A stretch of DNA of 64,000 bases from an uncultured Candidatus Saccharibacteria bacterium (GCA_964602975.1 CAZRTH010000002.1:7668-71667), one strand, 5' to 3'; counted from the first letter of the stretch, positions 22,209-58,300 are shown. Notes: generated from the letters alone by a model not told the origin. Translations and numbers: made by a program.

Positions 22209-22221
22209 TTTTCTTTTGTTG

Positions 22222-22613
22222 TGGAGATGGGAGGAATTGAACCCCCGTGCAGAAGAGTCTAGTGAATGGGTCTACGAAGGGTAGGGCGCTTCTATGTCTG
22301 CGGGGCAGACAATTCGCGCGAGCCGTTATGAAACGACCGAAAAGCGGCTCGCGCTATTCCCATGATTTCGAATCGGCGGCGGGACTCCGCTGATCCCATT
22401 CCACAAATATAGCGTCAGGACCGAACGGTGTGGAAACCATCCGGCTGGCGTCGCTTAGGCTTTCGCGTAAGCGAATGCAAGGTCAGCCGCACCGAAGTAC
22501 GGAGACTTTACAGATCCAAGTTTTGCACTTAGAATTTCCAGCCTTTTTAAGAGTTACTGGAGCTCTCCTTCGCACATTCAAGAGATATTCTTCCGTCGAT
22601 GCCTGGCATCCCC
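22222..22613 (-). ncRNA. ssrA: tmRNA (SsrA, transfer-messenger RNA)
   Basis: Minus-strand 5' end 'GGGGATGCCAGGCATCGACGG' mirrors E. coli 'GGGGCUGAUUCUGGAUUCGACGGG'; 3' end '...GGGGGTTCAATTCCTCCCATCTCCA' is a T-arm plus acceptor strand complementary to the 5' GGGGATG; adjacent to smpB; 'UAAAAAGGCUGG...AAGU-GCA' context resembles E. coli resume-codon context; CCA not encoded. Confidence 0.7.
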
Positions 22614-26699: not shown

Positions 26700-26775
26700 G
26701 CGCCCGTAGCTCAGTTGGTAGAGCAGGTGTCTTATACACACCTGGCCGGGGGTTCGAATCCCTCCGGGCGCACCA
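26700..26775 (+). tRNA. tRNA-Ile (anticodon UAU, decodes AUA), CCA encoded
   Basis: Cloverleaf: acceptor GCGCCCG/CGGGCGC, D-arm GCTC-AGTTGGTA-GAGC, anticodon stem GGTGT/ACACC with loop C-T-TAT-A-C, T-arm GGGGG-TTCGAAT-CCCTC, ACCA end. Confidence 0.7.
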
Positions 26776-53852: not shown

Positions 53853-53986
53853 TTTCGCGTCGAGTTCGTGGTACGCTGTTTCTTGTGTCCGGTGAAGGAC
53901 ATGGGTATTATCGCGGGGTAGAGAAGCAGTAACTCGCAAGGCTCATAACCTTGAGGCCCGCGTGCAATTCGCGGCCCCGCAACAAG

Positions 53987-56964: not shown

Positions 56965-57049
56965 CGTCGTCGAATTGATTGAAAAAAAGCGGTAAATATA
57001 CTATCCTTACAAAGCTATCTTGAATACCAAGCCAAGTAGCCAGTAATTT

Positions 57050-57319
57050 GCCGTTGTAGCTCAGTTGGTAGAGCACGTCATTGGTGGGTCGTAACCCCTG
57101 CCCACGATGGAAGCAATTTCGTCGCGAATCCCGAATAACGGTTAATATCCAAATATTGGACAAGACCGTGGCGCCGAAAGTTTCGACGCCCGAACGACTG
57201 ACAAGGGTCTCCTGTCGCTGCACGGTTTGCAGATTGGGGAGAAAGATACAGTCTAGTCCTCTCGCAAGATGAGGTGTAAACGAATGACGAGGTCATCAGT
57301 TCAATCCTGATCAACGGCT
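57050..57319 (+). tRNA. tRNA-Thr (anticodon GGU) interrupted by a group I intron between positions 36 and 37
   Basis: 5' exon 57050-57085 'GCCGTTG-TA-GCTC-AGTTGGTA-GAGC-A-CGTCA-TTGGT', 3' exon 57283-57319 'AA-TGACG-AGGTC-ATCAG-TTCAATC-CTGAT-CAACGGC-T'; joined exons give perfect cloverleaf with anticodon loop TTGGTAA identical to E. coli tRNA-Thr(GGU); 5' exon ends in U, intron ends in G. Confidence 0.6.
57086..57282 (+). ncRNA. candidate group I self-splicing intron (~197 nt) within tRNA-Thr(GGU)
   Basis: Contains 'GACAAGACCGU' (cf. Tetrahymena P3/J3-4 'GGCAAGACCGUCAAAUUGCGGG') and 'AAGAUACAGUCUAGUCC' (cf. conserved J8/7-P7 'AAGAUAUAGUCC'; Azoarcus 'GAGACUAGACGG'); terminal G before 3' exon; size similar to the smallest known tRNA-embedded group I introns. 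Confidence 0.5.
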
Positions 57320-57415
57320 CTTTTTTCAGCACTTAGGTCAAATAATAGAAATAAAAAAACCGAGCAGCCATTGTTGACTGCCGGTTCGTGATTCTCATTA
57401 CCGCTGTTCGAGGCC

Positions 57416-58300
57416 TCAGCGATTTTCCATGATGCCGAGCCGCTTGAGATAGCGGGCGTCGCGCTCGACGCATTCGTGCCCCGGGGTCTGTGTGGAGCAG
57501 AGGTCTTCGAGACCGAATGCCCGGATCATGCCGAGGTCGAAGGTTTCGACGCCAAGCACGCAATCTTGCGGGAGCAGATCCAATTCGAGGGAGTAGTCAT
57601 GGAAATTGATTCCGTGATCAACGTCCAGGGGTTCCCGCTTCAGATTTGCGAGCTCGAAGTAGCCGACTGCGTGGCGCATCTTCCTGAAATCCGCAATCGT
57701 CAAGCCACGCATCTTTGCGTGCCCGGTGTCCCAGTGCAGCTTGATTCGGCCGAGGTCGAAACTGGTGATGATGTCGAAGATGTGATGGAAAGGGTTCGGC
57801 GTTCCTTCTTCGGCACCGTTGAGCGCTTCAAGACAGCCTTCGAAGCCCGTGTCCTGCATCAGTCTGTTCAGGCGGCAGAGCCAAGCAGCCTGGGGGATGG
57901 CGAGCCGCTTTTCTTGCCAATCAGGTCGATCGAGACGATGGATGGCCTGGAAAGGGCCCACCACTTTTCTCGGTCCGGTGACCGCATTGGCCAAGGCGAA
58001 AGCGAACTTCATCTGTTCGCGGATCACCTCCAGAGCAGCGCCCATAGCGCCTTTCAGGGGGTCGGGGCTACCGCCACCGAGGAAGCAGCACACCATGCCA
58101 AGCATCTGCTTTTCAACGAAGATGTCCGTGACGATCTCCGGAGTGAGGCTCGGCTGGAAGACCGCGGGCACGATGACCATGCCACTGTGGCCTTGGGCCT
58201 TGCAGTGGTCGAGGCTCGCGCGCAGGAGGTCGGCGTTGAAGCTATGGCCGTAGGCGAGGCAGTGACCCATGACTGGGGCGGGGAGGGTTAGCGTTTTCAT
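57416..58300 (-). CDS. hypothetical protein (possible TIM-barrel sugar-phosphate isomerase/epimerase-like)
   Basis: 294-aa ORF with His/Glu/Asp-rich conserved-looking positions ('HWDTGHA', 'GVETFD'); assignment weak. Confidence 0.35.
   Translation of the reverse strand: MKTLTLPAPVMGHCLAYGHSFNADLLRASLDHCKAQGHSGMVIVPAVFQPSLTPEIVTDIFVEKQMLGMVCCFLGGGSPDPLKGAMGAALEVIREQMKFAFALANAVTGPRKVVGPFQAIHRLDRPDWQEKRLAIPQAAWLCRLNRLMQDTGFEGCLEALNGAEEGTPNPFHHIFDIITSFDLGRIKLHWDTGHAKMRGLTIADFRKMRHAVGYFELANLKREPLDVDHGINFHDYSLELDLLPQDCVLGVETFDLGMIRAFGLEDLCSTQTPGHECVERDARYLKRLGIMENR

Follow-up and report, generated by a model that had tools for sequence, protein, structure and literature searches.

The window, by which we mean the whole 64,000-nucleotide stretch of DNA analysed here, contains a tRNA-Thr(GGU) gene in two halves. 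The locus comprises gatA, a gene for a 215-aa protein, two tRNA-Met genes, a tRNA-Asp gene, a methyltransferase gene, the split tRNA-Thr gene, a tRNA-Thr(CGU) gene, prfB, ftsE and ftsX. The canonical tRNA-Thr(GGU) corresponds to positions 57050-57085 joined to 57283-57319, and the insert (57086-57282, 197 nt) lies between anticodon base U36 and A37. An earlier note on this DNA had placed the halves 197 nt apart, which proved exact to the base: ARAGORN folded the joined halves into a 74-nt tRNA-Thr(GGT) with a perfect cloverleaf and, with introns allowed, read the unspliced genomic sequence as tRNA-Thr(ggt) i(37,197). No alternative exon/intron boundary gives the loop TTGGTAA (UUGGUAA), and moving the boundary by one base yields a wrong anticodon together with a non-U/non-G splice-site pair. 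The gene does not encode the CCA end. It is called neither by ARAGORN under default settings nor by Rfam at gathering thresholds, so that with default tRNA finders and Rfam the genome would seem to be without tRNA-Thr(GGU). A tRNA missed in this way distorts completeness and codon-usage estimates for Patescibacteria.

Two promoter-like sites are found about 45 nt upstream of the tRNA, against 0.7 expected, which is weak evidence for a promoter. On the 3' side of the gene (window 57320-57335 and 57363-57382 examined) there is a T-run, CTCTTTTTT; the one hairpin in the vicinity that resembles a terminator lies on the minus strand, as part of the convergent gene at 57416-58300.

The flanking GatA, RF2, FtsE and FtsX proteins are 45-83% identical to their counterparts in Patescibacteria MAGs, and the same gene order is found beside homologous introns in such MAGs (Kaiserbacteria, Paceibacteria, Nomurabacteria, Taylorbacteria and others). 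Judged from these genes, the host is a member of the Patescibacteria; the window contains no rRNA gene. An exact-protein look-up of the flanking methyltransferase gave no match, and no frameshift was evident in prfB when looked for upstream of 59032. Elsewhere in the window we observed a tRNA-Ile with anticodon UAU (26700-26775, 73.5 bits), an uncommon bacterial way to read AUA, and a 395-nt tmRNA gene (22219-22613, minus strand; 93.8 bits, alignment accuracy 0.79), which has large insertions when compared with the Rfam model.

A family of homologous introns in Patescibacteria

Species-representative genomes were scanned for 5' halves resembling that of tRNA-Thr with any base but A after them, at position 37, which gave at least 119 loci. 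A script applied to these loci found a matching 3' half 176-268 nt downstream, with an insert ending in G, in at least 59 of them. One family, all inserted at the same tRNA position, consists of at least 52 full-length homologues and the window intron, which is 63-86% identical to the other members over its whole length. A later profile search added the members L053, L059, L049 and L106, as well as L033, which runs off the end of its locus. Among the matches listed, the closest relative is L022 (JBAXTI010000001.1) and the hosts are all Patescibacteria MAGs (Kaiserbacteria, Paceibacteria, Nomurabacteria, Taylorbacteria, Parcubacteria, Vogelbacteria, Moraniibacteriota and Saccharibacteria-labelled bins); the family is widespread in Patescibacteria. 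Also among the matches listed, six further loci have introns of the alphaproteobacterial type in the same position. G is the last base of all family introns recovered, a property for which the alignment set had been pre-filtered.

A profile HMM of 51 members, built without the window and without its closest relative, matched 57076-57292 over profile positions 1-218 (nhmmer, E=1.6e-48, 159.9 bits) and had no second match anywhere in the window. At least 57 other genomes carry this split gene with an insert homologous to that of the window, which excludes chance. No coding-type ORF is present in the intron; the overlapping ORFs are short and lie across conserved RNA helices. With no plausible intron ORF and a conserved neighbourhood, vertical inheritance is suggested more than recent mobility.

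The earlier note had ranked an insert of about 197 nt among the smallest. It is indeed small but not exceptional, since family members range from 176 to 266 nt and Williams seed introns of about 200 nt or less are also known (their entry lengths including a few exon bases). The 266-nt intron (L050 4295-4580, minus strand) has an insertion of about 80 nt in P9 and an otherwise typical core. Another member (L064 310-509) has a weak P1 extension and two T-to-G changes (ACAGGCUAGG) that break a P7 A-U pair and one P9.0 pair; this copy may be decaying, or the changes may be assembly errors.

Introns in other tRNA genes were also apparent. The locus of the closest relative contains a 234-nt group I intron in an initiator-type tRNA-Met (L022 1885-2190; RF00028 60.1 bits, above threshold) with an Azoarcus-like core, which appears to sit after U33. 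The same tRNA-Met is found in the window at 53912-53983, with exons identical to those of L022 and no intron, so the intron is present in one and absent from the other of two genomes with about 80% identical proteins. Some 25 or more of the scanned loci have 219-252-nt inserts starting with TTTCGG and represent not tRNA-Thr but tRNA-Phe(GAA) genes with an intron at 33/34, a reading taken with U-1 and omega-G and a P1 of GGACU/GGUCC (L001, L006-L008, L015-L017, L019, L026, L028, L032, L060-L062, L071, L072, L075, L077, L087, L094, L101, L102, L105 and L107). Several of the corresponding bins are labelled Gammaproteobacteria or Bdellovibrionales yet look Patescibacteria-like. Finally, one locus bearing a Thr-family intron contains a further sub-threshold RF00028 match of 38 bits (L115 224-491, minus strand), probably a second intron of that genome.

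Secondary structure of the intron

The earlier note had named an Infernal search with the Rfam Intron_gpI model as a check, and its outcome was divided. RF00028 aligned over its full model length to 57080-57274, with the P1 hairpin, the J8/7-P7 string and P9 all in register, but scored only 17.2 bits (local E=0.049), below the gathering score of 50. In this alignment, AAGAUACAGUC, the J8/7-P7 string of the window, is matched to the RF00028 consensus gAAGAUAUAGUC (J8/7-P7 consensus AAGAUAUAGUC). The relatives L059 and L050 obtained 24.4 and 21.6 bits. No Rfam family other than Intron_gpI aligned to the insert. Because the RF00028 score is far below the gathering threshold, the case was built from comparative data.

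We used an alignment of 53 sequences (A1), with a model written in intron numbering (i1 = 57086) and including the tRNA anticodon stem (Table 1). The model pairs are formed in 93.4% of the cells of A1, as compared with 35-44% when the 3' partners are slid by 1-3 columns, and both partners vary in 35 of the 56 pairs. The model has a covariation score of 0.429, its slid versions have 0.06-0.12, and none of 500 shuffles reached the score of the model; related sequences without structure can exceed a shuffle control, and the slid controls are therefore the stronger test. Compensatory changes were observed in P1, P2, P5, P6, P8, P9.0 and P9, and at all five pairs of the anticodon stem. The core helices P3-P9 are 83-100% paired and follow the canonical order, P4-P6 being nested in P3 and P7 crossing P3 as a pseudoknot. 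Folded by itself, the window intron forms P2, P4, P5, P6, P7, P8 and P9 in its minimum free energy structure. As to the two findings that the earlier note had named as jointly speaking against a group I intron, the lack of a covariance-model hit was thus found in part and the lack of P1/P7 pairing was not, since both helices can be built.

Table 1. Positions of the split tRNA-Thr(GGU) gene and of the modelled intron elements in the window (intron numbering in parentheses).
Feature	Position	Strand	Description
Two overlapping sigma-70-like promoter matches	56975..57007	+	TTGATT-16-TATACT and TTGAAA-17-TATCCT; each 9/12 matches
5' exon of tRNA-Thr(GGU)	57050..57085	+	Acceptor 5' strand, D arm, anticodon stem 5' strand, U32 U33, G34 G35 U36; GCCGTTG TA GCTC AGTTGGTA GAGC A CGTCA TTGGT
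Predicted group I intron	57086..57282	+	197 nt, no homing endonuclease ORF; starts GGGTCG, ends GTAAACG
P1 5' strand	57083..57088	+	Exon G-3 G-2 U-1 and intron G1 G2 G3; 5' splice site after 57085
P1 3' strand, internal guide sequence CCUGCC	57097..57102 (i12-17)	+	G57100 (G15) pairs with U-1
P2 hairpin	57105..57124 (i20-27 / i32-39)	+	8 bp; GCAA tetraloop L2 at 57113-57116
P3 5' strand CCC (assigned by position and likeness)	57130..57132 (i45-47)	+	100% paired, invariant
P4 5' strand ACGGUU, P-like	57138..57143 (i53-58)	+	100% paired; one pair U·G to C-G
P5 hairpin UCCAA-AUA-UUGGA	about 57148..57160 (i62-67 / i71-76)	+	Main helix: 4/5 pairs change on both sides
P4 3' strand GACCGU, Q-like	57164..57169 (i79-84)	+	Within GACAAGACCGU
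P6/P6a hairpin GGCG...CGCC	57170..57190 (i85-88 / i102-105)	+	Two pairs covary
P7 5' strand GACUG, R-like	57196..57200 (i111-115)	+	99.6% paired, invariant in the family
P3 3' strand GGG	57205..57207 (i120-122)	+	P8 starts at the next base
P8 hairpin, UCUCC...GGAGA at its base	57208..57242 (i123-127 / i153-157)	+	5/5 pairs change on both sides
J8/7 AAGAUA and P7 3' strand CAGUC (P7 strand i164-168), S-like	57243..57253	+	RF00028 alignment; invariant or nearly so in the family
P9.0 5' strand GU	57256..57257 (i171-172)	+	Both pairs covary, 98% paired
P9 hairpin	57258..57274 (i173-178 / i183-189)	+	GCAA tetraloop L9 at 57264-57267
P9.0 3' strand AC (i195-196) and omega-G	57280..57282	+	3' splice site after 57282
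3' exon of tRNA-Thr(GGU)	57283..57319	+	A37 A38, anticodon stem 3' strand, variable loop, T arm, acceptor 3' strand, discriminator U; AA TGACG AGGTC ATCAG TTCAATC CTGAT CAACGGC T

The splice-site elements behave as the earlier note had expected. The 5' exon ends in T (U-1), which is paired in U·G in 51/51 distinct sequences; the exon-side pairs of P1 are invariant altogether (GC 51, GC 51, UG 51) and the intron-side pairs covary (GU/UA/GC, GC/AU and GC/UA). The terminal G of the intron (omega-G) is positioned by a covarying P9.0, found in the versions GU/AC, GC/GC, AU/AU and AC/GU (GC 35 and AU 15 at one pair, CG 25 and UA 24 at the other). In P2, all eight pairs change on both sides and the L2 loop is GNRA in 53/53 sequences. 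The P6 changes are G-C to A-U in seven sequences and G-C to C-G in one.

Both strings quoted in the earlier note as core elements are present, GACAAGACCGT at 57160-57170 and AAGATACAGTC at 57243-57253. GACAAGACCGU does belong to the core, but it makes up the 3' end of P5, J5/4 and the Q-like 3' strand of P4, not a P3 element. A similar string forms the P3 element in the Tetrahymena intron. For the core strings of the window we use the established names P, Q, R and S. AACGGUU, ACCGUGG and ACGACUGACA agree with the seed introns of Williams at the P, Q and R positions.

P3, P4 and P7 are always or nearly always paired, P3 and P7 being invariant and P4 showing a single U·G to C-G variant. Lacking compensatory change, these helices leave the family's own covariation neither for nor against the P3/P7 pseudoknot. 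P4 and P7 are backed, independently of the alignment, by the minimum free energy structure. The P3 5' strand would be the one proposed here from its position beside J3/4-P4 and its likeness to alpha-type introns. For P7, which we infer to be the guanosine-binding helix, GACUG/CAGUC is one of the covarying versions in other tRNA group I introns: compensating versions GACUA/UAGUC, GACUG/CAGUC and GGCCA/UGGUC are found in the alpha-type Thr introns, and GACUG/CAGUC is seen at the same covarying position of Williams' seed alignment in tRNA-Arg and tRNA-fMet introns.

Several other pairings were considered. The 'P8' aligned by RF00028 (57129-57136 with 57233-57240), the sole place in the window for an 8-bp P3-like helix, is window-specific, the relatives' sequence there being unrelated. 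A model with P3 as GACC/GGUC and no P6 was ruled out, the final P4 and P6 being conserved or covarying. Pairing of the L1 loop (CGU) with the last three intron bases (ACG) fits part of the family only (CGC with GCG; CAU with AUG in L115), would occupy omega-G and has no partner in L002. As the changes at the two bases before omega-G are explained by P9.0, this pairing was set aside. For P10, the single possible pair, U57099-A57283, is not conserved.

Two tertiary contacts can be proposed. The Azoarcus structure has L2-P8 and L9-P5 contacts. In the family, an L2 of GAAA always occurs with a P8 of GCUAA..UAUGC (25/25), which resembles the 11-nt GAAA receptor, and an L2 of GYAA or GCGA, the window type, always occurs with a plain P8 helix (28/28), the window copy being without the receptor-like sequence. 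This linkage is what an Azoarcus-type L2-P8 contact would predict; the split follows lineage and is thus not independent proof of the contact. The central CC:GG pairs of P5 are almost invariant and could receive L9.

Predicted splicing and competing explanations

We consider it very likely that the tRNA-Thr(GGU) gene is interrupted at U36/A37 by a compact group I intron without homing endonuclease. The precursor would be transcribed from a promoter just upstream, and the intron would fold to a group I core consisting of a P4-P6 domain and a P3-P7-P8-P9 domain, linked by the P3/P7 pseudoknot. In P1, a U·G wobble (U57085·G57100) would mark the 5' splice site for attack by an exogenous guanosine bound at P7. 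The terminal G57282, placed by the 2-bp P9.0, would then replace the exogenous guanosine, and the freed 3' OH of U36 would attack the 3' splice site, ligating the 74-nt tRNA-Thr(GGU) and releasing the intron. The exons would probably be held together by the anticodon stem, not by a P10 helix.

An intron derived from group I could nevertheless be unable to splice alone, either needing a host protein or special conditions or being kept as a regulated checkpoint of tRNA-Thr maturation. Self-splicing may be doubted on account of P3, which is down to CCC/GGG with P8 at the next base, and of the impossibility of P10, both of them unusual features. A checkpoint would be consistent with retention of the intron at every family locus listed, where no intron-less tRNA-Thr(GGU) was found within the fetched DNA of each locus, and a regulatory role has been speculated on by Nakagawa et al. 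Against a need for a cofactor, all catalytic-core elements are conserved under strong constraint and there is no candidate maturase gene in or beside the intron. Moreover, the Patescibacterial Asn and Asp introns self-spliced in vitro (Nakagawa 2026), and Zaug 1993 reports in vitro splicing of compact tRNA introns in which the anticodon stem takes the place of P10. We regard such dependence as unlikely, though as the most serious competitor of an intron that splices by itself.

Decay of the insertion is far less probable. Here the locus would be a tRNA pseudogene with a dead intron or insert, tRNA-Thr(GGU) being supplied elsewhere in the genome; a second copy may exist outside the visible 64 kb, and both the sub-threshold RF00028 score and the broken P7 and P9.0 pairs of L064 would fit. 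However, the insert is kept in more than 55 species, seven of its helices showing compensatory changes, and the splice-site U·G, omega-G and the exons are intact, the anticodon stem covarying as well. Such compensatory changes, along with intact splice sites and exons, indicate that both a functional ribozyme and a functional tRNA are under purifying selection. The chance that the insert is another kind of intron is negligible: a group II intron (of which some reports exist from tRNA genes of bacteria), an intron of the archaeal bulge-helix-bulge type, processed by a protein endonuclease (37/38, the canonical site of protein-spliced tRNA introns, is one base off) or a mobile element such as an IStron would be at odds with an insert that aligns to Intron_gpI alone in Rfam, is at 197 nt far too short for group II, lacks an ORF, terminal repeats and the geometry of a bulge-helix-bulge, places its splice sites in P1 and after P9.0, and lies in a bacterial host.

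Relation to known group I introns

The group I assignment at 36/37, which the earlier note had proposed, is backed by the comparative structure, by the in-register if weak RF00028 alignment and by the literature. The introns of tRNA-Thr(GGU) at 36/37 have been reported in the complete Patescibacteria genomes GCA_001029635.1, GCA_016700375.1 and GCA_030583745.1 (Table 1 of Nakagawa 2026, PMC13011429) and are counted among the "divergent group I introns", a term taken there from Castelle et al. 2018. Divergent introns are missed by RF00028 and detected by gpI_bact_tRNA.cm, the tFind model of Williams 2020; splicing assays in the same work covered the Asn and Asp 35/36 introns only. The published Patescibacterial class (Thr.5Ug) has the same gene, site, U-1/omega-G setting and phylum as the window intron, is likewise missed by RF00028 and is of comparable length, and the window intron is tied to it via 57 homologues from other Patescibacteria MAGs. 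On these sequence comparisons, the window intron can be taken as a member of this already published class. The premise of the earlier note that group I introns within genes for tRNAs are rare, with four classical cases given as known, is therefore outdated. It is also countered by the three complete genomes cited above and by the catalogue of Williams 2020 (doi 10.1101/2020.01.27.920355), in which the number of settings for tRNA introns grew from 4 to 21 and which counts 5292 introns and has a Thr.5Ug seed.

The position of the class among group I introns is less clear-cut. In the published tree it falls together with IA introns, on a long branch, and no Patescibacterial tRNA intron was assigned to IC (Nakagawa 2026). 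IA-type P7.1/P7.2 hairpins are absent from the family, in which four nucleotides (ACAA) separate the P7 5' and P3 3' strands in 53/53 sequences; the IA-type Williams seeds carry about 40-90 nt between P7 and P3'. The compact P2-P9 architecture fits IC3, but the core sequences differ: IC3 signature sequences are absent from the core of the window intron, nhmmer sees no IC3 similarity and the weak covariance-model hits are aided by the flanks. An HMM of sequence alone, made from nine Williams seeds (bona fide group I introns of bacterial tRNAs), did not find the window intron, and the family profile (nhmmer) reaches neither the alpha-type Thr introns, the fMet intron nor the Phe introns. The family covariance model (R1) aligned end to end with the alpha-type Thr introns, weakly (11-28 bits) and partly via shared exon flanks, and did not reach the fMet intron of L022.

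With a 3-bp P3 stacked on P8, no P10, no P7.1/P7.2, no IC3 core and members down to 176 nt, the Patescibacterial tRNA-Thr family may, as a tentative suggestion that we find rather doubtful, stand apart as a minimal variant of the group I ribozyme structure. If such a variant self-splices, few natural group I ribozymes would be smaller, and its placement with IA introns in the published tree would call for revision; if it does not, a host factor or regulatory dependence would be implied, in organisms with very few regulators. The split tRNA-Thr gene implies no new principle. It is of value mainly for annotating such genes correctly and for the structure, backed by covariation, of what is predicted to be a minimal ribozyme family: the 53-sequence alignment provides a covariation-supported secondary structure for a class that the literature only terms "divergent", the structure suggests that P3 is reduced and that the L2 loop and a P8 receptor change together, and the natural scaffolds of 176-200 nt are very short candidates for self-splicing.

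A parallel in setting is provided by the alphaproteobacterial Thr(GGU) 36/37 introns (Rba53.Thr.5Ug, L005, L044, L068, L082, L108 and L118), one of which, L108, passes the RF00028 gathering score with 55 bits. They share with the window intron the gene, the site, the helix order, the P2 GNRA loop and omega-G, and their P7 covaries. They differ by an identity of about 42-48% in forced alignment with no nhmmer similarity, by a 6-bp P3 as compared with the 3 bp (CCC/GGG) of the family, and by Azoarcus-like cores (GUAGAGACUAGAC / AAGGGAUAGUCC). Two such IC3-like introns belong to cultured alphaproteobacteria, Crenalkalicoccus roseus YIM 78023 (L082) and Pseudaestuariivita rosea H15 (L118), which would be convenient hosts for in vivo splicing tests of Thr.5Ug introns.

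The tRNA-Ile(CAU) intron of Azoarcus (Aol6.Ile2.5Ug, IC3) likewise follows position 36, measures about 200 nt and consists of P2-P9 without peripheral extensions; GNRA loops on P2 and P9 are a further parallel, as is the receptor-type P8 in part of the Thr family. Its core differs from that of the window (ACGACUGACAAGGG vs GUAGAGACUAGACGGCACC, and AAGAUACAGUC vs AAGGCAUAGUCC), P3 has 3 bp in the window intron as against 6 bp in Azoarcus, and the window intron has GCAA loops and no 11-nt receptor. Finally, the CPR introns Mba143.Tyr.4Ug and Pgr210.Thr.2Ug of Williams' seed alignment occupy other anticodon-loop positions in other tRNAs and have a 6-bp P3, but by inspection their P4 and S elements are nearly the same (GAUAACGGUGAA / AAUACCGUGG / AAGAUAUAGUCC vs GAAUAACGGUUAA / AAGACCGUGG / AAGAUACAGUCU) and, like the window intron, they have nothing inserted between P7 and P3'.
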